Below, in pieces: positions 5,060 through 37,916 of a stretch of DNA of 64,000 bases. Under the pieces are notes generated by a model that searched no databases, had not been told where the DNA came from, and was given only the letters and a program-made list of their open reading frames with translations. Each line of letters starts with the position of its first letter. Within the stretch, counting starts at the first letter, position 1. Both the position numbers and the translations under genes were made by a program. This stretch comes from a bacterium (GTDB lineage: Bacteria > Electryoneota > JAOADG01), in contig OY820579.1 of NCBI GenBank assembly GCA_963681965.1, forward strand, positions 2,256,835 through 2,320,834, read 5' to 3'.

Positions 5060-7048
5060 ATGGAAACTGCCGTTAACACTGCCAACTGGAATTATTTGAT
5101 CCTCATCCCGCTGCTTCCGCTCGCGGGCGTGTTGATCAATCTCCTGTGCTACAAAGCGAAATTGCCCGAGAAAGCAGTCGGCTGGTTCGCTTCATTGACA
5201 GTACTTTCCAGTTTCGCATTGTCGCTGATGGCATTCATCCAACTTCGCGCATTGACACCCGAACATCGTTCGATCGAAGTCGTCTTCCTGAAATGGATCG
5301 AAGTCGGTTCGCTCCATCTCGATTGGGCAATCCTGCTCGATCCTCTCTCGTCGCTGATGATGCTGATCATCACCGGTGTCGGCGGTGTGATCCATATTTA
5401 CTCCATCGGCTATATGCACGGCGACAAGAGCTTCAGCCGCTTCTTCATCTATCTCAATCTATTCGTCTTCTTCATGCTCTGGTTGGTGATGGGTAACTCC
5501 TTCGCCACCATGTTCATCGGTTGGGAAGGGGTCGGGCTCTGTAGCTACCTGCTCATCGGTTTCTGGTTCACCGATATGGCGAAAGCGAGTGCCGGAAAGA
5601 AAGCATTCGTCGTCAATCGCATCGGCGACTGGGGCTTTTTGCTGGCAATGCTGCTGCTATTCACGACATTCGGTTCGCTGCAATTCACCAAAGTGTTACC
5701 CGCTGCATTCGAGCAATATCCCAATGGCGCTCCGGTTATCACCGCGATCGCGCTGTTGTTCTTTGTCGGTGCTTGCGGTAAGTCGGCTCAGATTCCGCTC
5801 TACATCTGGCTCCCCGACGCCATGGCAGGTCCCACGCCGGTTTCTGCCTTGATCCATGCCGCCACGATGGTTACCGCCGGTGTCTATATGGTAGCGCGTG
5901 CCAATATCCTCTTTTCGCTGTCGCCGATTGCGATGCAGACGGTTGCAACGATCGGAGCGCTGACTGCGCTGTTTGCCGCGACGATCGGTTTGCGGCAGTG
6001 GGATATCAAGAAAGTGCTCGCCTATTCCACCGTGTCCCAGCTCGGATTCATGTTCCTCGGTGCCGGCGTCGGTGCCTATGAGACCGGTATCGCGCATGTT
6101 ATGACGCATGCGTTCTTCAAAGCCTGTTTGTTCCTCGGTTCCGGTGCCGTCATTCACGCAATGGAGCATGCGTTCCATCACAGCAACGTGCACCTCGATC
6201 CGCAGGATATTCGCTATATGGGTGGGTTGCGCAAAAAGATTCCACTCACCTTCTGGACATTTTTGGTTGCGACGGTCGCAATTGCCGGTATCCCCGGATT
6301 CGCGGGCTTCTTCAGCAAGGACGAAATTCTTTGGAAGACCTATGCCAGCGGTCATGTGGTGCTCTGGATTATCGCCACAATCACTGCCGGACTGACCGCA
6401 TTTTACATGTTCCGGCTCGTCTTCCTGACTTTCTTCGGCACTTTCCGGGGTGGCGCCGACGTCGAACCGCACGTCAAGGAAGTATCGCCACTGATGACCG
6501 GTGTCCTGATCGTGTTGGCATTCTTCTCGGTCTTTGGTGGTCATTTGGCAATTCCCGAATCGCTTGGTGGTCATTTCGTTATCGGCGAGTGGTTGGAACC
6601 GGTCGTAGCGAATTCCCGCTCGCTGGCAACGCTCGCATTCTATAAAGAGCACCATCCATTATCGTTGGAACTCGGCTTGATGGCGCTTTCCGTCGTCGTC
6701 GCACTGATCGGTATCGGCATCGCCGCGCTGCTCTACTGGCGTAAGAAGCAGGATCGCGAAGTATTGCTCCGCCGCGCTACCGGCTATGCCAATGTGCTGG
6801 AAAATAAATATTGGGTCGATGAGATCTACGAAATGCTTATCGTCAAACCGCTCTACAATCTGTCGGTGTTCTTCTGGAAAGTTGCCGACGGGATGGCGAT
6901 CGACGGATTCATCAACGGTACCGGTCGCTTGGTCGATGCGATCGGCGGTAGTTTGCGCCGGCTTCAAACCGGATTTATTTCCAATTACGCTTTACTCATG
7001 TCGGTCGCGATCGCATTTGTCGTCGGCTGGATGTTGTTCGGACGCTAG
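5060..7048 (+). CDS. nuoL: NADH-quinone oxidoreductase subunit L
   Basis: 662-aa antiporter-like subunit with typical NuoL/ND5 sequence. Confidence 0.9.
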   Translation: METAVNTANWNYLILIPLLPLAGVLINLLCYKAKLPEKAVGWFASLTVLSSFALSLMAFIQLRALTPEHRSIEVVFLKWIEVGSLHLDWAILLDPLSSLMMLIITGVGGVIHIYSIGYMHGDKSFSRFFIYLNLFVFFMLWLVMGNSFATMFIGWEGVGLCSYLLIGFWFTDMAKASAGKKAFVVNRIGDWGFLLAMLLLFTTFGSLQFTKVLPAAFEQYPNGAPVITAIALLFFVGACGKSAQIPLYIWLPDAMAGPTPVSALIHAATMVTAGVYMVARANILFSLSPIAMQTVATIGALTALFAATIGLRQWDIKKVLAYSTVSQLGFMFLGAGVGAYETGIAHVMTHAFFKACLFLGSGAVIHAMEHAFHHSNVHLDPQDIRYMGGLRKKIPLTFWTFLVATVAIAGIPGFAGFFSKDEILWKTYASGHVVLWIIATITAGLTAFYMFRLVFLTFFGTFRGGADVEPHVKEVSPLMTGVLIVLAFFSVFGGHLAIPESLGGHFVIGEWLEPVVANSRSLATLAFYKEHHPLSLELGLMALSVVVALIGIGIAALLYWRKKQDREVLLRRATGYANVLENKYWVDEIYEMLIVKPLYNLSVFFWKVADGMAIDGFINGTGRLVDAIGGSLRRLQTGFISNYALLMSVAIAFVVGWMLFGR

Positions 7049-27677: not shown

Positions 27678-30600
27678 TTACTTCATGAACACCACTTTAC
27701 GCGTGGTCTTGAAGTTGTCGGCGGTAATCATCACGTAATACACGCCGCTGGCGTTGCCGCTGGCATTCCAATGCAGAGTATAGGTTCCGGCATCGAGGTT
27801 CCCTTGCGATAATACTGCTACTTCGCGACCGGTTTGATCGAACACCTTCGCCGAAACAAAACCGCTCTTCGGAACACTCAGTTTCATCGTCATCGAGGGA
27901 TTGAACGGATTCGGATACGCTTCCGAAACCACGTAATCCTTCGGTAACATCTGGGTCGCCGGTTGATCGACACCAGTGAATCCATCGGGAGTTTGCGTAC
28001 TGAATCGGATGATGTGGTTGTTGTGCAACTCTTCCGCACCCGGAGATGCGACGTGTGCAAACAACAGATCCAAACCGTCGGTGTGTTCCCAATTCATGAT
28101 GCCCATCGTTGTGTAGTTGTTGGTCTGATCGACATCGGATGAAGTGTGATACTGGAAATCGATAATGTTGTCGCTCGATGGTCCACGACGATCGCCGTAA
28201 AGAATGATTTCGAATTTCTGTCGGATCGGATTCGTTTCAATACCGTACCGCGAATATGCTTCCGCCCATTCGATGATATATTTCCGATCGCCGGGGGTGT
28301 TGTCCATTCGATAGAACAATCGGACTCGACCGCTATCAGCCGGATTCGAACCCTTCAAGTCGTCCCAGTTCGCCGCAAGCAACGTGCGCGGTCCCTGAGA
28401 ATTCGGCAGCGTCCAGTTGTAGAAATCATACATCCAGGTGCTGTCGAAGCTGACCCAACCATTCGAACAAATCGACAAGAATTGATTGTAAGTCCGACCG
28501 TAGAATGTGAATGGGAACGGTATCGCTTGCACATACGTGGTATCGTCTTTCAGAATGAGCGAAGTCCCGTTACCGCCCAGTGCCGTATCCAATTCGATCC
28601 AGTTATAAGTCGGTGTCGGCCACGTTCCGGTCGACGGTACGTCGATCTCTTCGTAGGCGTAGTAGCCGTAATTGTCCGGTCCGGTCGGCATCGTGCTGGC
28701 ACGGGTTCCGCAAGTGATATTGAACCACGTGGTCAATGTATCCGAACCACCGATGATCCAATTCAACATCCGAATGGGAATGATGTGTCCGGGTAGAATG
28801 GATTGGGCGATTTCCGCATCGAATGCTACAAAACCGCTATCGCGAATCGCCATATAATACGCCGCCGGTGTCGTGATATTCATGCCATTCGAGAAGGTGA
28901 CAAACTGGTAGTTGCATGCCGGAATGGCAGCGTTACCCTCACTCTTGAGATGCACTTGAATTGTCGTCGAGCGGCTGACACCCGGTGTTAACGACCCACT
29001 CTCGACGACGATCCCGGAGATCCGCGGTAATGCCCAAGCGACTGGCATGGCGAAATCGACGGCACCCGAAGCGAACGTCAAGCGAAGCGATTCCGGTGTG
29101 CGATCTGCCAGGGATACGACTTTCACGCGATAAGTCAGGGATGTGGTAGCACCGGCATTCACCGTACCGGCATTGGAACTATTGTTGAGAATGACCAACC
29201 GGTTGCGCGTATTCGTTTGCGATAAAATCGCCTGCGAAGCGGCTGCGGTCGTTCCCACATTCTTGATTAAGATGTTGATATCGCCTTCGACACCCGGGCT
29301 GGGCAGTGTATTGGGAATATTGAAGAACACTGAATCGACCCGGAACTGACCAATCAAAGGATTATTAGTTTGAATGTAGTTGATAACTGGACGGTAGTTA
29401 CCGCCGCGAACCGCGATTCTAACGGTATCGTTTGCGACGATCCGCAATGGTAACGTGGCATATCCTTGAGCATCAGTAAGCGAGACTGCTGGATTAGCAC
29501 CAGCATTTCCGACGATCAGCGCTGCAACCATATTCGGCAAAGGATTACCTGTTCGCTGATCGACTGCGCGAATCGTCATCGAAGACGAAGCTGGATTCAA
29601 TGTCGTCGGGAATGTCACTTGCATCGTGTCAGGTGTTTTGTACCATAACGTCAATGACGGATCGCCAAGGATGTTGTAGAACCGGAAATATTGTTCGACT
29701 GCCGTCATCTCATTCGGGAAACCTTGATACACTTCCAATTTTCCGCGCAATGTTGCCGGACCCAGTTTATTGAGACCGTCATTCAGCCAGCCGTGCAGCA
29801 ATCCAGCCAGAATTGGGTTGTTATAGCGTGTGCTGGTATGCAAGTGGGCTGCACCGAAGAAAGCCGGACCGCATTTCGGTACACTTGGCGAACCGGTTTC
29901 AACCCATGCTTCGCCGAAGCATTGGTTGCCGTCGACTTGCGAATTTAATGCGGCATACCGACCATTCTGACAGACGATCGATAGCATTACTGCATCGTTT
30001 CTGGTGACATTAGCCAAGTCACCTCGCTGTAATCGAGGGTAGAGTGGACCTTGGCTATCGCCCCAGCCGCGATAAGTGATTAGCGAAACACCTTGATTGA
30101 TTAACGCAAGAATCGAATCAGTACCTGGTGCCGGTTGCATCGGATAAAGATAGGTACTGACATTGTAACCAAAGTCACGCAACATCTGTGCTGCCCAACG
30201 GGTATTTTCCGTGGGAGTGATCGGTGGGCTACCCGTGTCGGAATAGTTGCCGGCGAAGCAGAATGCTTTATTCATGTAATTCGTATTCGCTGGGTTTCCA
30301 GTTCCGGGGGAATTTTGATGTTGTTGTGTTTTGTTCACGATCGTAGCAAGTCCTGTAGTAGAACCATAGGAGATTCTACCCAGAAATGCTTCCGGCCAGA
30401 AGTCAGAACCATCCAGCAATACATAATTCAAGTCGGAAGGAACCGTTTCCGCTGCCGAAACGGTAAACGGAAACGTCGGGACATTGTCCAATCGGTCGGC
30501 ATCGCCGATAATCGCGACATATTCGACTGGAAGCGTATGTGCCAACGAATTGTAGACATCGGCTATCAACAATTTGATCTGGTCGCCATTGGCTCCGGAC

Positions 30601-31391
30601 GGAATCAAGATCGTAGCGACATTATATCCTTCCATTTTCTTCAAATTGGTAAACGTGAGAAGTTGCGAATTATAAGACGCTGAGGAAGGACGCACGATCA
30701 CGTAAGTACCCGGTCGCCACAACAGGGATCGTCCCATCGAGAATGGGTTATAACCCAAAAACATCGTTTCATAGATCCCGTGATAGGATGGTGTGATCGG
30801 ACCGGTTAATGTCGGTCCTGCTACAGTCGCAGTCAACGTGATCGTTAGTTCGCTGATCGCTTCGATGGTGCCGTCGGATAGTTGGCGCAACGGATACACG
30901 GTCACCGGAACGACGCCGAAATCCTTGAAGACACCCGGTTCGCCGACAGTCACGCGCGGCATCTCGCTGGATTTCGCCAACGGGGTGTTGGGGAATTCCG
31001 GATCGCTGGCGATCGCAACTGCGCCGCCGAGTCGGTCCGTCGTGATATGTTCCGTACGTCCGGCAACGACACTGGCAGTCGCTTTCACCGCAAAATTGAA
31101 GGGGACGAATACGGTCACGCCGGAAATATCGGGGGTACCTAATTTCGGAAACGCTTCGTGTTGTCCACCAACGCGAAGAGCAACGCCGTTGGTCGCTTTC
31201 TCAACCGCGAAGCCATTCAACTTCACTGTGAAAGTGACCGTGGTTGCGCTGCGATTGAGTTGATCGACGTTGGGGGATGGGGTGCCGACTGCCGCGGATG
31301 ACGCTGCATCGGACAGCCAGACGGTTTGCACGGGAGCAGCAAATGCGCCGAGTGCAACGATTAACAGGATCGAAAGAAGTAACCTTCTCAT
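27678..31391 (-). CDS. Peptidase C25 (gingipain-like) family secreted protein with T9SS C-terminal sorting domain
   Basis: Signal peptide; C25-like core around YVAIIGDADRL and the later region with conserved His and Cys; C-terminal KVFDQTGREV...GVYYVMITADNFKTTRKVVFMK. Confidence 0.6.
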   Translation of the reverse strand: MRRLLLSILLIVALGAFAAPVQTVWLSDAASSAAVGTPSPNVDQLNRSATTVTFTVKLNGFAVEKATNGVALRVGGQHEAFPKLGTPDISGVTVFVPFNFAVKATASVVAGRTEHITTDRLGGAVAIASDPEFPNTPLAKSSEMPRVTVGEPGVFKDFGVVPVTVYPLRQLSDGTIEAISELTITLTATVAGPTLTGPITPSYHGIYETMFLGYNPFSMGRSLLWRPGTYVIVRPSSASYNSQLLTFTNLKKMEGYNVATILIPSGANGDQIKLLIADVYNSLAHTLPVEYVAIIGDADRLDNVPTFPFTVSAAETVPSDLNYVLLDGSDFWPEAFLGRISYGSTTGLATIVNKTQQHQNSPGTGNPANTNYMNKAFCFAGNYSDTGSPPITPTENTRWAAQMLRDFGYNVSTYLYPMQPAPGTDSILALINQGVSLITYRGWGDSQGPLYPRLQRGDLANVTRNDAVMLSIVCQNGRYAALNSQVDGNQCFGEAWVETGSPSVPKCGPAFFGAAHLHTSTRYNNPILAGLLHGWLNDGLNKLGPATLRGKLEVYQGFPNEMTAVEQYFRFYNILGDPSLTLWYKTPDTMQVTFPTTLNPASSSMTIRAVDQRTGNPLPNMVAALIVGNAGANPAVSLTDAQGYATLPLRIVANDTVRIAVRGGNYRPVINYIQTNNPLIGQFRVDSVFFNIPNTLPSPGVEGDINILIKNVGTTAAASQAILSQTNTRNRLVILNNSSNAGTVNAGATTSLTYRVKVVSLADRTPESLRLTFASGAVDFAMPVAWALPRISGIVVESGSLTPGVSRSTTIQVHLKSEGNAAIPACNYQFVTFSNGMNITTPAAYYMAIRDSGFVAFDAEIAQSILPGHIIPIRMLNWIIGGSDTLTTWFNITCGTRASTMPTGPDNYGYYAYEEIDVPSTGTWPTPTYNWIELDTALGGNGTSLILKDDTTYVQAIPFPFTFYGRTYNQFLSICSNGWVSFDSTWMYDFYNWTLPNSQGPRTLLAANWDDLKGSNPADSGRVRLFYRMDNTPGDRKYIIEWAEAYSRYGIETNPIRQKFEIILYGDRRGPSSDNIIDFQYHTSSDVDQTNNYTTMGIMNWEHTDGLDLLFAHVASPGAEELHNNHIIRFSTQTPDGFTGVDQPATQMLPKDYVVSEAYPNPFNPSMTMKLSVPKSGFVSAKVFDQTGREVAVLSQGNLDAGTYTLHWNASGNASGVYYVMITADNFKTTRKVVFMK

Positions 31392-32217
31392 CGGTGTTTC
31401 CTCCTCTTGGTGAACAGTCCCGGTATGAAACGAAAACTTCCGACAAAAAAACGCAAGCCGAAAATCAATCCGCTCAGTCGATCCGGGGGCAGCGGTTGCA
31501 CCTGTTTATGATCTCGCCACTGTAGCCGCGAAAGTTTCGAGAGAATCTCAATACTACAGTTACAATATGCATTCAAAGCCGGATAAAAGCAATATGCAAC
31601 AACGATTGCGAATGAAAATCAATCTTGATAACACATTTGCACACAACTTCCCAGAAGTGATTACTATTTATACAGATATTAGCTACTTACCGGAGGTAAA
31701 GGATGCTCTCTGCAGATGATCGGTTGATTTGTCGTTGCGAGGACTGCAGCGAAGGAACATGCGAAGCATTTCCGAAGCGGAAGGACGAAGCAATCTATCT
31801 TGAATCCTGTTTTCTCTAGTAGGGGTGGGTCCCCGCGCCCGCCCGTTCTTGTATCTTTATTTCTCTTTTCCCAATCCCCAATGCCTATTTCTCCATCACC
31901 CATTCTATGCGTCAGGCGCTGCCTGCCGCTTGGGGCGAATGCGATTCGCCCCTACGGAAAAAACGCGGACTAAAGTCCGCCGCTACCATGATGAATTGTC
32001 AGGCTGAAGCCTAACTTCCGATTTCAAGAGACAGATACACCGAACCTGCGATTCGCTTCCTTTCCGTAGGTCAGAACTTGTTCTGACCATTTCTTGTATT
32101 TTTTTTCTCTTTTCCCACCACCTACAACCCACTACCCACCACCCGTTTGGTTGATTTGTCGTTGCGAGGACTGCAGCGAAGGAACATGCGAAGCATTACC
32201 TCAGTTTCTTCCCGACG
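31392..32217. repeat. REP-like hairpin cluster
   Basis: Two copies of the ~70-nt cgttgcgagg element, gtaggggtgggtccccgcgcccgcccg, ccgtaggggcgaatcgcattcgcccc (reverse), gcggactaaagtccgccgctacc, gtaggtcagaacttgttctgacc. Confidence 0.75.
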
Positions 32218-33017
32218 GTGCATCTCTCCTACAAATTGAGCAAACTAAATGAATTGCAATTGAGTTACAGTCGGCGCGTGCGGCGACCGGATGGTGAGGA
32301 TTTGAATCCATTCCCGGAATATCGCGATCCGTTGAATGTCTGGGCGGGAAATCCGAAACTGTTGCCGGAATATGTGAATGTGCTGGAACTCGGTTGTCAA
32401 TATCTGAATGGCGGATTGATGTTGGTACCGGCGCTGTTCTACCGCAACACGAATAATCGCTTTACCCGGGTCACGCAGACACTGCACGATTCGATCGTCT
32501 TGACGACCATGGAAAATCTGGCTTCCGATCAATCCGGCGGTATCGAATTGAATGTGTCGTGGAATCATCAGAAATCGTTTTCGCTTCACGGATACAGTAG
32601 TGTGTTTTTCGATCAGATCGATGCCACCAATCTTAACAATACAATGGAAAGAAGAATGTTACGACGTGGACCAGCAATATCACGATGGATGTCAATTTGA
32701 CCGAGACCAGCCGGTTTCAACTCAACTCGAATTACAATTCGGCACGATTGACGGCGCAAGGGAAAAACAAACCGTCGTATTCGCTCAATTCCGGTTTTCG
32801 ACAAGAATTGTTTGAAGGAAAATTGACGATCACTGCGACCGTCACGGATATCTTCAAGACGATGAAACGGGAATTCGAGTTGAATATCCCGACGCTGCAG
32901 CAAACATCGGTGAATAAGCGCGACTCGCGCGTAATGTACGTCGGATTGAATTATCGCTTCGGTTCGCAGAAGAAGAAAGCGAAAGAAGACCAGATTAAAT
33001 ACGATGACGGGTTGTAG
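32218..33017 (+). pseudogene. Remnant of an outer-membrane beta-barrel protein gene (C-terminal ~265 codons, frameshifted)
   Basis: No signal peptide or N-terminal domain; reading frame switches near 32650-32700 between track ORFs 32218-32700 and 32685-33017; ends with beta-barrel-like ...YVGLNYRFG; 5' side abuts the repeat cluster. Confidence 0.45.
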
Positions 33018-33040
33018 AATAGATCGCCGTAAAATGTATA

Positions 33041-33068
33041 CGGGCGCTTTGCAGCGCCCGTTTTTTTT
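33041..33068 (+). terminator. Rho-independent terminator
   Basis: cgggcgctttgcagcgcccg hairpin followed by an 8-T run. Confidence 0.6.
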
Positions 33069-33134
33069 GTGTTTCTTACACTCGTTCGAATTTCGTGGTG
33101 AAGTGCCGCAGGATCGGTGGTTCGTAGGTGGTCC
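33068..33134. repeat. Left direct repeat: diverged duplicate of the tnaA 3' end (putative att remnant)
   Basis: gtgtttcttacactcgttcgaatttcgtggtgaagtgccgcaggatcggtggttcgtaggtggtcc is ~92% identical to 36341-36405; on the minus strand it still encodes ...TYEPPILRHFTTKFERV-stop. Confidence 0.7.
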
Positions 33135-33201
33135 TTAAAAGCTAGTTCAACATTCGAACTTAGAATATCAATTAATTGATTGCTAGATAATCTGAATTGG
33201 A

Positions 33202-34011
33202 TTAAATGTAAGGATCGTCCAATTTGCAGTAACTAGCATCAAGAATATTGGCTTTACAACAATAATTCATTAACCAAGTTACATGTTCTTCATCGATGGG
33301 TGGGATATCCTTCTTGAACAAAACGGCTCGATCCAATCTTCCGATCCACTCTCGCGCTTTAGTTACTAATTGAACCTCGATGATACGCGATTCTTGGATC
33401 ATAATTAAAAAATGGATAGCACGATAATTAGTGTCGTGGGAGTACAATTTCGGATTGAAATAATAATTTCTGCATCGATAAATTTTTCGATAAAAGTCAC
33501 GCCATATTTTTACTCCTAATTGCGCAAGTTCGTTAGGAGTCTGGACGACTATTCGAAATCGAACCAAGTCCCAAATATCGTATAAATATTCAGGATAATA
33601 CCCTAACCGTTTTCGTTTCTCAATCGATTTTGCGATTGATTCATCTGATTTCAAGTTACCAAATAAATGTTCGAGCGGAACTTGCGATTTCTCGATATAA
33701 TCAAGTAACACGAGTCGGGAAAAGTCAAAGACTTTCTGTTTCTCATTTTTATCCATCACAAAATCAGACCAGTCAGCGATATTTTGACTAATTCGAAAGC
33801 CTGTTTCCGGGATAACTATTAACTTTCTAGATAATAGATCTACTGACTGATCGTGAAGCAATTGAAAATTGGGATCTGCTGAGTTTGTTCCATTCTCAAT
33901 TTTATTGCCTAACTCTAAAAATTCGGTTCGATCTTTGTCAGAAAGTGAGCACCAGAATTGTTTGAACCATTTGTCATGGCACTCGCAGTATTCGATATGT
34001 CTTTGTAACAT
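33202..34011 (-). CDS. RelA/SpoT-like (RSH/small alarmone synthetase-like) nucleotidyltransferase-fold protein
   Basis: Ordered motifs with RelQ-like spacing: SIAKSIEKRKR, DIWDLVRFRIVV, NYRAIHFLIMI, IEVQLVTKAREW...LFK. By-eye match, not HMM-verified. Confidence 0.5.
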   Translation of the reverse strand: MLQRHIEYCECHDKWFKQFWCSLSDKDRTEFLELGNKIENGTNSADPNFQLLHDQSVDLLSRKLIVIPETGFRISQNIADWSDFVMDKNEKQKVFDFSRLVLLDYIEKSQVPLEHLFGNLKSDESIAKSIEKRKRLGYYPEYLYDIWDLVRFRIVVQTPNELAQLGVKIWRDFYRKIYRCRNYYFNPKLYSHDTNYRAIHFLIMIQESRIIEVQLVTKAREWIGRLDRAVLFKKDIPPIDEEHVTWLMNYCCKANILDASYCKLDDPYI

Positions 34012-34031
34012 TGAGCACTCAAAATTATTAA

Positions 34032-34652
34032 TTACGAGAAATAGATATCATTCTTTGCAAATGTTGATCGAACAGAGTCCTTTCTCTCAACAACAGCAAT
34101 TTTTTTTCCTTTCTTATGAAGTAATAGAAATTCTTTGTTTACTAAATCTTTAATGCGATAATACATTTCACTCGGATTTTGAACTTTGTCAACTTGCCAT
34201 CTCTGAAAATTCGTAAATAAATCTTCAAGAGTGATCTGATCTAATGAATACTCGTATATAAATTCAATTATCTTTTTCTGAGTAAAAGATAATTTTCTAT
34301 AAGAATCCACTAATTTCAGTTCTTGATCTGCAACACTAGGAGCACTCTCGATGGGTATTTTAGATACTGATGTAACAGAATAAAGCGAATATTCGTTAGG
34401 TTTTTGTTTTAAATTAGATTTATGTGAAAGATATGTGAACAAAATCACGAAAAATAATCCAATTAATAATTCAAACACACCTATAAATACTATTAACCCA
34501 TTTGGGTGAGCACGATAAATTATATTATTTGTTTGATTATGCCATTCGAAAATTCCTAATAAAATCATAACTGTTCCACCAAGAACAAATATTGCATCGA
34601 TTCTTGCCTTAAAAAGACTTTTTAAAAGTTCGAACATAATGATCCCTTTCAA
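34032..34652 (-). CDS. Membrane protein: two N-terminal TM helices plus ~110-aa C-terminal winged-helix-like domain (paralog 1)
   Basis: Shares with the next gene the pattern ELLK..KA..D.I.VL.G..M.LLGIFEW..Q.NNII.R.HP and a C-terminal block ...YYRIKDL...G..IAV.E. Confidence 0.55.
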   Translation of the reverse strand: MKGIIMFELLKSLFKARIDAIFVLGGTVMILLGIFEWHNQTNNIIYRAHPNGLIVFIGVFELLIGLFFVILFTYLSHKSNLKQKPNEYSLYSVTSVSKIPIESAPSVADQELKLVDSYRKLSFTQKKIIEFIYEYSLDQITLEDLFTNFQRWQVDKVQNPSEMYYRIKDLVNKEFLLLHKKGKKIAVVERKDSVRSTFAKNDIYFS

Positions 34653-34703
34653 AATAATAAATTAGAGATTAATCGCTTTAAATTGAAATGAATTACCGGT
34701 TAA

Positions 34704-35249
34704 TTAAGAGCACAATATATTCTTTTTTTCCAAAGTTAACTGAACAAAACCAATTTTCTCAATGACAGCTATATTTCTTCCAATATTATGAAGATTAATG
34801 AAACCATTATATTTTAGATCTTTAATTCTATAATAAAATTCGTTTTTGTTTTGAATAATTCCAGGTCTCCAGGCTTGAAAACCATCGAAAAGCACTTCGA
34901 GAGAAATTTCATTTAATAAATGTTGGTAAATAAATTGTACAATCAGCATTTGTGTTAATGTTAAATTGTGATAAGATAAGACTAACTGTTCTTCATAGTC
35001 TCGTTTAGGACTTGCCATCTCCGAATGAACTCTCTGTTGAATATAGAAATTAATAATATAGAGTGAAATACCAATTAATGTTAACAGAATCCCAATAAAA
35101 ATGACAAAACTATGAGGATGTGTTCGAATAATAATGTTATTTAATTGACCATTCCATTCAAAAATACCAAGCAGCAACATCGAAGAACCAACAAGCACTA
35201 AGATGACATCAACTTTTGCTTTAAGAACGCCTTTAAGTAGTTCTAGCAT
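34704..35249 (-). CDS. Membrane protein: two N-terminal TM helices plus C-terminal winged-helix-like domain (paralog 2)
   Basis: Paralog of 34032-34652; start overlaps the stop of the upstream NTase gene (35243-35249). Confidence 0.55.
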   Translation of the reverse strand: MLELLKGVLKAKVDVILVLVGSSMLLLGIFEWNGQLNNIIIRTHPHSFVIFIGILLTLIGISLYIINFYIQQRVHSEMASPKRDYEEQLVLSYHNLTLTQMLIVQFIYQHLLNEISLEVLFDGFQAWRPGIIQNKNEFYYRIKDLKYNGFINLHNIGRNIAVIEKIGFVQLTLEKKNILCS

Positions 35250-36130
35250 GATAAAGCTCGTCTTGGAAGAGAAATATGATTTTTTTCGATAAGTACAATT
35301 TGAGTACTAAATTTTATCTTTACTCTTATAGCGCAATCGGCTGAAAAGCAATTTGGGTGGTTGCCCTTAGTCGACTCAAATAAAAGAATATTTTCTTTCA
35401 TATGAATTGGAAGCGATGATTGTAATGGCATTTGATAATAATTTTGGACGTACTCCTTCATACAACAAAAATAAAAATAGTATGCTGTGGCTTGTTGAAT
35501 CGGTAGAGTGCTGACTTGCAGTGAATCAATAATTTTGTGTTCTTTTAACCACCAATCACATAAAACAAGAAACTCGTAATCAACCAATCCCCCAGCACCG
35601 CTTTTAAAATCCCAATAATGTGGCGATTTTGGGTCGTCGTATTCATCGCTGCGATGTGGGTTTCCGAGGAAGAATCTGTGCAAATTATCGAATGAAGTAT
35701 TTTTCAACCAATACTTGAATTTACTAATAAATTCTTGGTAGATCGACTGGTTTCCTGCAAGAAATCGAAGGTGAGGAAAAGAGACAAGTAATGGAAAAGA
35801 GTAGGTGTCGATTGCTTTATCGAGAGAATTAATGATGAAATGCGTTGGATGATTTGGTGTGTATCGTTTAAGTAGCGATTTTATCAAATCGCGATCAATG
35901 TTTGGTGATCGATAAAGAACGAAGAAATCAATATCGGAAAACTGATTTGGATGACCGCGAGCGTAGCTTCCCCTTAAACAGATAGCAAAAGTTTGATTAT
36001 TCAAAAATGAAGAAATATGCTCTTCGGAAAGATAGGCGTGAAGTTGTTCAACTCGTTTTAAGAATTTCTCTTGATATGTCAGCGATAATTTTAAGAATGT
36101 TGTCGGGTTGTTTGTGATAAACATAAACAA
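35243..36130 (-). CDS. Nucleotidyltransferase with Pol-beta-type motif and GlnD/GlnE-like second motif
   Basis: GSYARGHPNQFSDIDFFVL (GS-x10-DxD) and ~120 aa later DFKSGAGGLVDYEF, resembling the GlnD/GlnE uridylyl/adenylyl-transferase signature. Confidence 0.55.
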   Translation of the reverse strand: MFMFITNNPTTFLKLSLTYQEKFLKRVEQLHAYLSEEHISSFLNNQTFAICLRGSYARGHPNQFSDIDFFVLYRSPNIDRDLIKSLLKRYTPNHPTHFIINSLDKAIDTYSFPLLVSFPHLRFLAGNQSIYQEFISKFKYWLKNTSFDNLHRFFLGNPHRSDEYDDPKSPHYWDFKSGAGGLVDYEFLVLCDWWLKEHKIIDSLQVSTLPIQQATAYYFYFCCMKEYVQNYYQMPLQSSLPIHMKENILLFESTKGNHPNCFSADCAIRVKIKFSTQIVLIEKNHISLPRRALSC

Positions 36131-36300
36131 TACCTATGCAAACTTCATTCGATCACAGTAGTAAAAAAATCCATAAATAGTTTCTTCATGAGGCAATTAG
36201 TATTCTTGTAAAGATAATAATAAACTAAACAAATTCAAAATGGTATTTGGTAAAATATAAACAATCAACTTACATGTTGACGAGATATCTAAAAAATAAT

Positions 36301-36320
36301 TCCGGTAAAACTATACCGGA
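36301..36320 (-). terminator. Candidate terminator for tnaA lying inside the island
   Basis: Hairpin ccggtaaaactataccgg immediately 3' of the tnaA stop, followed on the minus strand by a T-rich run. Confidence 0.4.
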
Positions 36321-36338
36321 ATTATCAATTAAGTTAAA

Positions 36339-36405
36339 TTGTGTTTCTTACACCCGTTCGAATTTTGTGGTGAAGTGCCGCAGGATCGGCGGTTCGTAAG
36401 TGATC
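36339..36405. repeat. Right direct repeat: functional 3' end of tnaA
   Basis: gtgtttcttacacccgttcgaattttgtggtgaagtgccgcaggatcggcggttcgtaagtgatcc; encodes ...ITYEPPILRHFTTKFERV-stop in frame with tnaA. Confidence 0.7.
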
Positions 36406-37715
36406 CGCAGACCTTTGATTTTGTGAGCGCGATCTTTCAACTTCTTCATCCCGTCGGCAACAAATTCGAGATGCGAATTCGTGTATGCGCGTCGCGGAAC
36501 GCAAAGCCTTAGCAATTCCAATTTCGGATAGCGGTTTTCGCGGGTTACCGGATCGCGATCCGCCAGTACCGTGCCAATTTCCACACCACGGACACCCGCC
36601 TCGATATAGGCTTCCACGCCCAGCACCTGCGCCGGGAACGCTTCGCGCGGAATATTCGGCAACAATTTCAAGGCATCGACGTAGATCGCATGTCCACCTG
36701 CCGGCTGTACGATCGGAATGCCGCGTTCCAACAAGAGATCGCCGAAATATTTCACCTGAGCCAACCGGAATTCGAGGTAATCTTCTTCAACACCTTCGCG
36801 TAGACCGACCGCCAATGCTTCCAAGTCGCGTCCCGATTGACCGCCGTACGTCACGAACCCTTCAAACAGAATTCCGAAAATCGAGCACTGACGATACAGC
36901 TCTTCGTCGCGACAGGCAATAAAGCCACCGATATTCACCAGCGCGTCCTTCTTCGAGGACATCGTGCAACCATCTGCCATGGAAAATAGTTCGAGGGCAA
37001 TTTCTTTGACCGATTTCTGTGAATATCCATTTTCGCGCTGTTGAATGAATTTGCAATTTTCGGCATAGCGCGCGGCATCGATGAATAATTTCACGTCATA
37101 CTTGTCGCACAAGGCTTTCACGGCACGGGCATTTTCCATCGAGACTGGTTGTCCGCCGGTGCTGTTACAGGTAACCGTGAGTAATACGAAGGGAATTAAT
37201 TTCTTCGGAGCATATTCCTGCAAAACCGATTCCAGTTTTTTCAGGCAGACATTCCCTTTGAACGGATGGATCAGCTCCGGATCGAAAGCGTTGTCGTCGG
37301 TGCAGTCGATCGCGTGCGCTTTGCGATATTCGATGTGTCCTTTGGTCGTATCGAAATGCGAATTGCCGGGAATGACTTCTCCTTCGTGAACCAATACACT
37401 ATGCAGTACGTTTTCGGCAGCACGCCCTTGGTGGGTGGGGAGGACGAAGGGAAAACCCATGATATCCTGAACCGCTTTTTGGAAATTGTAGAATGAGCGC
37501 GCACCGGCATACGATTCGTCGCCCATCATCAACGCTGCCCACTGCGCATTCGACATCGCGCCGGTACCACTGTCCGAGAGCATATCGATGAAGACATCTT
37601 CCGAATGCAAGCCAAATAGATTGTAGCCGGTTTCCTTGATTTTTTGTTCCCGCTCGTCGCGCGGCAGGAGCCGGATCGGCTCAATCATCTTGATTCGGTA
37701 GGGTTCTGGAAACAT
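36348..37715 (-). CDS. tnaA: Tryptophanase / beta-eliminating lyase family (PLP-dependent)
   Basis: PLP-lysine motif SSKKDALVNIGGF; overall TnaA/TPL-like sequence; start set to MFPEPYRIKMIEP. Confidence 0.85.
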   Translation of the reverse strand: MFPEPYRIKMIEPIRLLPRDEREQKIKETGYNLFGLHSEDVFIDMLSDSGTGAMSNAQWAALMMGDESYAGARSFYNFQKAVQDIMGFPFVLPTHQGRAAENVLHSVLVHEGEVIPGNSHFDTTKGHIEYRKAHAIDCTDDNAFDPELIHPFKGNVCLKKLESVLQEYAPKKLIPFVLLTVTCNSTGGQPVSMENARAVKALCDKYDVKLFIDAARYAENCKFIQQRENGYSQKSVKEIALELFSMADGCTMSSKKDALVNIGGFIACRDEELYRQCSIFGILFEGFVTYGGQSGRDLEALAVGLREGVEEDYLEFRLAQVKYFGDLLLERGIPIVQPAGGHAIYVDALKLLPNIPREAFPAQVLGVEAYIEAGVRGVEIGTVLADRDPVTRENRYPKLELLRLCVPRRAYTNSHLEFVADGMKKLKDRAHKIKGLRITYEPPILRHFTTKFERV

Positions 37716-37916
37716 CGTAACTCCGTTCAATAGTACTTCCCAGCGACACCTTCTTACCGAAAAATCCCGGAAGAAAGTGGTGAAACTTGGTTGATTCGCA
37801 GTATCCGGCAGCGAACTGACATTGTCCGGCAACCTGCCGGGTAAAATATAACCTCGAAAACCGCGATTCCGAAAAGTTTGTTTTTTATCGAAATACCTTT
37901 GAGTTTGCGATACCGA

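Follow-up and report, generated by a model that had tools for sequence, protein, structure and literature searches.

What does a tight cluster of four genes, set in low-GC DNA behind a tryptophanase-like gene, do in a bacterium of the Electryoneota? The cluster lies at positions 33202-36130 of a 64,000-nucleotide stretch of contig OY820579.1 (assembly GCA_963681965.1, positions 2,256,835 to 2,320,834 of the forward strand), which is referred to as the window. It consists of four intact open reading frames (ORFs) on the minus strand, designated A to D, which encode a nucleotidyltransferase (NTase; A), two membrane proteins with a winged helix-turn-helix (wHTH) domain (B and C), and a RelA/SpoT homologue (RSH; D). 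The conserved unit is formed by three genes in the order NTase, effector-wHTH, RSH. The balance of the evidence tips toward the window copy being a rare three-component conflict system, i.e., a putative abortive-infection-type module acting against phages or mobile genetic elements (MGEs).

Three co-inherited genes with an exchangeable effector head

The coordinates of the four minus-strand ORFs (Table 1), as reported in the initial annotation, are confirmed by the ORF list and agree with the public database gene calls. None of the four proteins has a name or, at 90% identity, a cluster mate in a collection of 15 billion. The stop codon of A and the start codon of B overlap by 7 nt (tcATGcTAG), and the gap between C and D is 20 nt. 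The gap between B and C measures 66 nt from the ATG of C (the database start at 34637, giving 201 aa) and 51 nt from an alternative TTG at 34652 (206 aa). These overlapping or short gaps bear out the earlier proposal of one operon. A chance origin of the arrangement is excluded, since the ORFs are long in DNA of 32% GC, homologues of every one are conserved independently, and unrelated contigs repeat the gene order.

The cluster was originally taken for a four-gene module. However, the conserved unit is a triad, and the tandem pair of B and C is peculiar to this window, which is the only one of 18 triads with two effector genes. When the contexts of seven relatives of D were compared by all-against-all BLAST, a neighbour of ~280-310 aa proved to be a homologue of A. 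The gene directly upstream of D always ends in a ~95-aa C-terminal domain (CTD) of the B/C type, and its head consists either of two transmembrane helices (2TM) or of a TIR domain (Pfam TIR_2). Hidden Markov models (HMMs) were built from the loci of these seven contexts and tested on loci outside the build set (L012, L013, L014, L017, and L024-L026). Three of these, from metagenome-assembled genomes (MAGs) labelled Bacteroidetes, Saprospiraceae, and "Nanoarchaeia," all contain the NTase, the CTD, and D in order (L012-L014; E-values of 1.6e-44, 1.3e-32, and 1.5e-14 for the NTase and of 4.7e-26, 3.5e-25, and 3.6e-15 for the CTD). The same arrangement is also present in the metagenome loci L017 and L024-L026, and the triads L038, L041, and L042 were reached from the NTase side alone. 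With the held-out and NTase-seeded loci included, the total comes to 18 distinct loci with this gene order, 8 with a 2TM head and 10 with a TIR head (L005 and L008 are of the TIR type).

The NTase itself can be part of the effector. P0019 is a single 619-aa NTase-TIR-CTD fusion with a D gene directly downstream (5.6e-105); L038 is such a fused form with two genes. Behind the NTase P0017, a TIR-like gene begins before the contig breaks off. P0018 (L041) and P0037 (L042) are NTases of 2TM-type triads, and the D gene of L042 is cut by the contig end. Translational coupling or fusion ties the NTase to the effector, the three genes are inherited together, and different killing heads alternate on a constant wHTH. 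In L041, the 2TM-wHTH effector gene (5864-6540) is split by a frameshift within the wHTH, with the NTase and RSH genes intact; either the assembly is wrong at this point or the effector gene is truly decaying.

In a neighbour-joining tree of D, the triad-linked proteins part from a sister clade whose loci contain neither the NTase nor the CTD. TIR and 2TM types are intermingled in this tree, which has no support values, suggesting exchange of the head on more than one occasion. The D protein of L022, a 3.6-kb contig on which no triad was detected, groups with that of the window. The glutamate of the "C-x-x-E" motif is kept in the five TIR rows of the effector alignment, so that the TIR heads look catalytically competent. 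The interchangeability of the 2TM head with a TIR domain sharpens the interpretation of these proteins as defence effectors.

The system is rare. The D family counts 14 relatives in a library of 5.8 billion clusters, 4 loci in 100,044 species genomes, belonging to Bacteroidota and archaeal MAGs, and 22 loci in 241 million metagenome records. A complete TIR-type triad is present in L013, the MAG labelled Nanoarchaeia, which may mean that the system crosses domains or else that MAG bins are contaminated. An uncultured-archaeon MAG contains a 171-aa D-like fragment with no NTase or CTD neighbour (L015:790-1305), which probably is a decayed remnant.

Many triads are found in mobile or defence contexts. 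L003 is accompanied by an integrase, Phage_CRI, and a caspase-like gene, L009 by a relaxase, a type IV coupling protein (T4CP), and ParDE, L010 by IS21, HerA_C, and a trypsin-like gene, and L011 by TraI, a Schlafen/AlbA-like gene, and a TIR/Ndt-like gene. L013 adjoins a gene for a HerA-like ATPase, and L014 sits between DUF4238 and a type I restriction-modification system. Two triads contain an extra upstream gene for a protein without a wHTH domain, i.e., a 530-aa caspase-like Peptidase_C14 protein (L003:4770-6362) and a 283-aa Nuc_deoxyrib_tr/TIR-like protein, the gene of which overlaps the NTase gene (L011:3618-4469). These proteins may be additional effectors.

The sister clade has other company. 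At the metagenome loci L029 (4387-7936), L031, and L035, a D-like RSH occurs without an NTase and a wHTH effector. Its neighbours are a sigma-54 response regulator, a ~270-aa TIR/Nuc_deoxyrib_tr-like protein, and APH/TCAD9 or TPR-S/MAP3K_TRAF_bd proteins, and these loci may represent a second, undescribed RSH-based system. In L033 (1393-7059) and L034, a D-like RSH gene is divergently paired with a gene for a ~1,500-aa FIST-GAF-histidine-kinase protein.

The components of the triad

The initial annotation described A as a GlnD/GlnE-like NTase, B and C as tandem paralogues with two transmembrane helices and a winged-helix-like domain of ~100 aa at the C terminus, and D as a protein with RelA/SpoT synthetase-like motifs. 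All three descriptions agree with the results of the searches. A scores 28.3 bits against Pfam NTP_transf_2 (cutoff 21) and contains the motifs LRGSYARG (52-59), FSDIDFF (64-70), and DFKSGAGGLVDYEF (174-187). It has the NTase core G-S-x(9-11)-D-x-D and a following helical domain carrying K-x-G-x-G-G-x-x-D-x-E-F, and the catalytic residues of the G-S...S-D-x-D and K-x-G-x-G-G motifs are invariant in the family. There was no match to Pfam GlnD_UR_UTase or GlnE at E <= 1. Under the curated NCBIfam cutoffs, A reaches 16.5 bits vs. 799 for GlnD, 9.8 vs. 724 for GlnE, and 18.3 vs. 60 for MntA, the latter again far below, and it also stays below the curated HalB cutoff. One member of the A family, P0055, barely attains the cutoff for GlnD_UR_UTase (21.1 vs. 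21). As the GlnD, GlnE, MntA, and HalB cutoffs are all failed, A is therefore a sister family within the GlnE/GlnD/DrrA clade, outside every named family. Its assignment to the Hailong, CBASS, or MntA NTases was rejected on the cutoffs and on fold ranking.

GlnE, GlnD, and Legionella DrrA each nucleotidylylate tyrosines of protein substrates, and the nearest structural relatives of A all modify protein tyrosines. Unlike these proteins, A is a stand-alone NTase of ~290 aa, without an HD, ACT, or second NTase domain. A word-indexed homologue search recovered only A itself, and an exhaustive phmmer search of 1.84 billion representatives yielded only 47 matches at E <= 1e-3, the two weakest of which have the NTase, GlnD_UR_UTase, HD, and ACT domains of true GlnD proteins. 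The A family comprises ~45 clusters and is linked to the triad in every context retrieved.

D matches Pfam RelA_SpoT (PF04607) over residues 120-233 with 32.1 bits (cutoff 27). A profile of D and 14 relatives matches RelP/RelQ in the PDB (6fgk, 1.3e-5; 6ewz; 2be3) with E-values from 1.3e-5 to 4e-4 and with the catalytic Asp and Glu aligned. The toxSAS structures CapRel, FaRel2, and Tas1 are absent from these matches. D contains the motifs DIWDLVRFRIVV, CRNYYFNPK, YRAIHF, and IIEVQLVTK, and the invariants of its family are G118, K121, D145, D148, R151, R153, R181, Y183, Y184, Y196, R197, H200, E212, and Q214. The catalytic Asp D148 and Glu E212, the acceptor-stacking Y183, and H200, the histidine of the Y-x-S-x-H motif, are conserved in 15/15 proteins and align to RelP residues. 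D does not possess the canonical ATP-binding arginines: the Arg of R-x-K is replaced by Gly or Asn (119) and that of E-x-Q-I-R-T by Val, Met, or Asn (216). Also, the Gly of D-x-x-G-x-R is replaced by the invariant R151. Judged from these residues, D retains its fold and catalytic core, with a substrate pocket that is remodelled and unlike that of a textbook (p)ppGpp synthetase. In the triad clade, most D proteins have a neutral or acidic character (median net charge about -1), whereas those of the sister clade are mostly basic, which is weak evidence against tRNA as the acceptor of the triad-linked enzymes.

B and C share 41% identity from end to end (E = 7e-49), and both carry two hydrophobic helices at the N terminus. 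Neither protein has a match in Pfam, NCBIfam, or PADLOC. An AlphaFold2 (AF2) model of residues 81-181 of B, i.e., the CTD, built on an alignment of B, C, and one relative only, is a canonical winged helix (pLDDT 91.3, pTM 0.84) with the topology H1-b1-H2-H3-b2-b3 (H18-30, b34-36, H37-47, H55-67, b71-76, and b80-85). Foldseek aligned it with Fur, PerR, HlyU/ArsR, MarR-family proteins, F-93, CodY-C, and kleisin winged-helix domains at TM-scores of 0.55-0.69, with a probability of 1.0 for Fur, PerR, HlyU, MarR, F-93, and CodY-C. No specific wHTH family was singled out (best E 3e-3), and the HalA structure is not among the 50 Foldseek matches listed. Sub-threshold matches to the death-effector domain (E 0.2-0.8) raised the possibility of a death-effector or death-like fold, which was rejected because the AF2 model is a winged helix containing β-strands and because hhalign detected no matching domain in A or D (probability below 1%). 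A CTD profile gave no significant match in the library of 5.8 billion sequences, the domain being too short for a library of that size. Most CTDs are mildly basic.

The insert and its borders

The operon resides in an insert of 3,204 bp (33135-36338) with a GC content of 32.2%, as compared with 50% in the 20 kb on either side, giving a sharp GC trough. A 68-nt direct repeat, the copies of which are 93% identical, exactly brackets this insert (Table 1). The right copy belongs to a tryptophanase-like gene with a Pfam Beta_elim_lyase match. The left copy holds the reading frame TTYEPPILRHFTTKFERV-stop (…TYEPPILRHFTTKFERV-stop). Since the frame is kept and four of the five differences are synonymous, both copies appear to be genuine, separately diverged ends of the lyase gene. 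Such a pattern is the footprint expected of site-specific integration by an element bearing a look-alike gene end. Thus, the GC content and the repeat support the view that the window copy was acquired horizontally and forms an island of foreign DNA behind the tryptophanase-like gene. The earlier notion of a mobile island stands as far as the foreign GC content and the repeat are concerned, but the insert itself contains no integrase, and no tRNA or Rfam RNA either, according to the ORF list and to Pfam, tRNA, and Rfam searches.

Table 1. Features of the insert and its borders in the window.
Feature	Position	Strand	Description
Left 68-nt repeat copy	33067..33134	-	Diverged duplicate of the last 18 codons of the tryptophanase-like gene, stop codon and 9 further nt; att-like junction
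Gene D	33202..34011	-	269-aa small-alarmone-synthetase-like RelA/SpoT homologue; pyrophosphokinase fold; N-terminal extension of ~80 aa
Gene C	34032..34637	-	201-aa 2TM + winged-helix (CTD) candidate effector, paralogue of B; CTD HMM 3.4e-37
Gene B	34704..35249	-	181-aa 2TM + winged-helix (CTD) candidate effector; CTD HMM 4.5e-37
Gene A	35243..36124	-	293-aa GlnE/GlnD/DrrA-type nucleotidyltransferase; ATG 36124 is the database start, TTG-start ORF reaches 36130
Right 68-nt repeat copy	36339..36406	-	Functional 3' end of the tryptophanase-like gene 36348-37832
Promoter-like site upstream of gene A	36254..36283	-	TCGTCA-18-TATATT; 9/12 matches, consensus match only
Terminator-like hairpin inside insert	36295..36326	-	Directly after the lyase stop codon; 13-bp stem, then T-run
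Bidirectional terminator-like hairpin	33040..33061	.	Outer left edge, beside the displaced lyase 3'-end copy; 9-bp stem, 7 of the pairs GC; scored on both strands

The hairpin inside the insert would shield the operon from read-through. Promoter-like sites in the region are no more numerous than expected from shuffled sequences. A match to the Rfam L20-leader at 32971-33075 (E 0.08; 24.8 bits vs. a gathering score of 58.7), which overlaps the bidirectional hairpin, was treated as a chance match.

Outside the island, two consecutive ORFs of 160 and 110 aa on the plus strand (32218-33017) match the TonB-dependent receptor β-barrel and OMP_b-brl_3 families. They probably are the frameshifted C-terminal remnant of an outer-membrane receptor without its N-terminal part, i.e., a pseudogene bordering the island. 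Further away, a 52-nt direct repeat of 98% identity with an exact core of 46 nt (31722-31773 and 32149-32200) has only these two copies within the window. It lies in a gene-poor stretch (31400-32200), alongside other short repeats and hairpin-like GC-rich motifs, and may be a small repeat element or what remains of a rearrangement. The minus strand at 27678-31391 encodes a 1,237-aa Peptidase_C25 (gingipain-like) protein with a Por_Secre_tail sorting domain of the type IX secretion system (T9SS), which points to a host from the Bacteroidota/FCB group.

Possible functions of the triad

The combination was originally noted as corresponding to no named system, and it still does not. No system model of PADLOC v2 was matched, all matches being at the level of domains, and the set of NTase, 2TM- or TIR-wHTH protein, and RSH was not found described in the papers searched, all of them from outside subscription journals. 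A study of toxSAS neighbourhoods (PMC7229694) does not mention TIR, nucleotidyltransferase, or transmembrane partners, and a systematic screen of TIR systems from 2025 (10.64898/2025.12.03.692087) does not mention the combination of NTase, wHTH effector, and RSH.

The triad nevertheless shares features with several known systems. As in CBASS, Pycsar, and Pucsar, a nucleotide-handling enzyme is combined with a killing head that alternates between TIR and transmembrane forms on a constant regulatory domain, and the logic of a nucleotide enzyme with a swappable TIR or transmembrane effector is common to CBASS, Pycsar, Hailong, and Clover. However, the window system contains no CD-NTase or cyclase (Foldseek to CdnE 6wt9, E 0.3; a PADLOC "Cyclase" match in one orthologue spans only the 30-residue NTase motif). 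Moreover, its constant domain is a wHTH rather than a SAVED, STING, CARF, or cNMP-binding domain, and two different transferases are present. With Hailong, composed of the channel HalA and the NTase HalB, the triad shares an NTase gene beside that for a transmembrane effector and, as far as the summary in PMC13434031 goes, an NTase that likely is a negative regulator. In HepT-MntA, a type VII toxin-antitoxin system, an NTase likewise shares its operon with a toxic partner, and the logic proposed for the triad, restraint of the toxic protein by tyrosine nucleotidylylation, would be that of HepT-MntA; the pair of a minimal MntA NTase and a HEPN toxin is not found in the window system. By the criteria tested, which place the NTase outside the CD-NTase, HalB, and MntA types and the receiver domain outside SAVED, STING, and CARF, the triad belongs to none of the CBASS, Hailong, and MntA families. 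We rate it as a modular candidate system of the abortive-infection type, made of parts not previously seen together.

The reading as a conflict system is carried by the triad in 18 loci, the head that alternates around a constant wHTH, the NTase-TIR-wHTH fusion, the invariant catalytic residues, the mobile and defence contexts, and the low-GC insert bounded by repeats. In such a system, the NTase, coupled or fused to the effector, could exert a constitutive restraint by nucleotidylylating a partner protein, either the effector or the RSH enzyme, by analogy with GlnE, GlnD, DrrA, and MntA, which act on protein targets. This role is suggested by the relatives that share its fold and by the fused form. 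Hailong and Clover, as summarised in PMC13434031, provide precedents of NTases that constitutively restrain effectors. Upon infection, the RSH enzyme would pyrophosphorylate an adenosine or guanosine moiety at its 3'-OH, with ATP as the donor, and the winged-helix domain would be the regulatory or receiver part that takes up the RSH signal or modification. The effector would then assemble and cause membrane depolarisation (2TM) or NAD+ depletion (TIR), by which the infected cell is stopped; a function of the heads in membrane disruption or NAD+ depletion would parallel that of effectors in CBASS, Pycsar, and Thoeris. In the window, the products of the duplicated effector gene could possibly form a hetero-oligomer. 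Any single step of this scheme has a much lower probability than the abortive-infection reading as a whole.

Several observations weigh against the conflict-system reading. The wHTH alignment contains no strictly invariant Tyr, Ser, or Thr, so that there is no evident universal nucleotidylylation site in this domain. Hence, the target of the NTase may instead be D, with its invariant Y183, Y184, and Y196, or the NTase itself, with its near-invariant Y220. Furthermore, to our knowledge, the winged helix is not a receptor fold for second messengers, and, given that its best structural matches are DNA-binding regulators, the modelled CTD could bind DNA or protein. The remodelled active site of D suggests that its substrates may differ from the standard alarmone precursors. 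The window copy of D, all other family invariants of which are intact, has R228 where 14/14 aligned relatives have a His; this is the His of the H-x-x-x-x-K motif, which aligns with the RSH motif "EH..YK." Relatives of D were not found in IMG/VR, INPHARED, or PLSDB, and thus no cultured or annotated carrier has been identified. Finally, L017, L025, and the window copy have housekeeping genes on their flanks.

An unlikely alternative, though one to be taken seriously, is a toxSAS toxin-antitoxin system with a type VII-like logic. D would then be a toxin, acting by pyrophosphorylation of tRNA-CCA or by (pp)pApp synthesis with ATP depletion, A would be an enzymatic antitoxin that nucleotidylylates a tyrosine of D as MntA does on HepT, and the wHTH protein would be an autoregulator or accessory. 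The known toxSASs (FaRel, FaRel2, PhRel, and CapRel; Jimmy et al., 2020, PMC7229694) have in common with the triad a small RSH synthetase encoded in a compact, mobile operon of two or three genes, a conserved catalytic core of Asp, Glu, and Tyr, and an implication in phage defence. D is a small-alarmone-synthetase (SAS)-like RSH with an intact catalytic core, and SAS genes in tight two- or three-gene operons often encode toxins (PMC7229694). The invariant tyrosines in the active site of D are possible acceptor sites, which suits an NTase with protein-tyrosine modifiers as nearest structural relatives and MntA as a weaker match, and wHTH domains are typical autoregulators. However, a GlnE-like NTase and a 2TM- or TIR-wHTH protein are not among the described antitoxins, and D deviates from the toxSASs by the lack of the R-x-K and Q-I-R-T arginines and by a PDB profile nearer to RelP/RelQ than to any solved toxSAS. 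The mostly neutral or acidic charge of the triad-clade D proteins is ill-suited to tRNA binding, and the MntA score of A is well under the NCBIfam cutoff. This alternative also leaves unexplained why the wHTH is always fused with one of two heads, 2TM or TIR, exchanged in the manner of defence effectors, and why the NTase is coupled or fused to the effector protein and not to D.

Improbable, in our estimate, is a Hailong-like guard of nucleic acids, in which the NTase would constitutively make a protein-primed oligonucleotide that is bound by the wHTH, keeping the channel or TIR closed, and the RSH would cap or mark the 3' end with pyrophosphate, until phage nucleases or ssDNA-binding proteins strip the ligand and release the effector. 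A transmembrane effector restrained by an NTase is the architecture of Hailong as summarised in PMC13434031, and HalB primes on a tyrosine hydroxyl, which is chemically akin to tyrosine nucleotidylylation of the GlnE type. Nucleic-acid binding is common in wHTH domains, to which the mildly basic nature of most CTDs conforms, and RSH toxins are able to pyrophosphorylate the 3'-OH of an RNA end (PMC11782079). The similarity of A to HalB is confined to a 25-residue NTase motif, the cytoplasmic domain of the window effector is a generic wHTH, and Hailong has neither an RSH enzyme nor a TIR alternative. The least probable of the explanations considered is a regulator of stress or physiology without a role in defence, i.e., a membrane-anchored wHTH transcription factor set by GlnD/GlnE-style nucleotidylylation and a local alarmone synthetase. 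It would fit with GlnD and GlnE being metabolic regulators, with RelP and RelQ, the best PDB matches of D, being housekeeping SAS enzymes, with the resemblance of the wHTH to the Fur, PerR, MarR, and ArsR regulators, and with the housekeeping neighbours at some loci. It is disfavoured by an extremely sparse and patchy distribution (4/100,044 species; Bacteroidota and archaeal MAGs), by the carriage of loci on MGEs, by the foreign GC content and att-like repeat of the window copy, by the replacement of the transmembrane head by a TIR domain with predicted intact catalytic residues, and by the associated caspase- and TIR-like accessory genes, all of which are typical of conflict systems and not of core regulators.

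The two transferases might even work in series on one handle, a speculation to which we assign a very low probability. A would put AMP or another NMP on a protein hydroxyl, either of the effector or of itself, and the RSH would pyrophosphorylate the 3'-OH of this nucleotide; or, in reverse, the NTase would transfer a (pp)pApp-type nucleotide made by the RSH. The wHTH would then read a "protein-tethered alarmone." If true, this would be a new post-translational or signalling chemistry in the control of immunity, joining the enzymology of the stringent response to TIR and membrane effectors.

The three-gene, or fused two-gene, architecture is small enough for direct synthesis and testing. If functional, the triad would be the first conflict system we know of in which an enzyme with an alarmone-synthetase fold and a GlnE-type NTase jointly control a TIR or membrane effector via a winged helix. 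This winged helix would be a receiver unlike SAVED, CARF, or STING and, hence, a new regulatory domain of effectors, and the nucleotide chemistry of immunity would be widened to 3'-pyrophosphorylated nucleotides or protein nucleotidylylation. A function would also be assigned to the NTase family and the RSH subfamily, both of them orphans.

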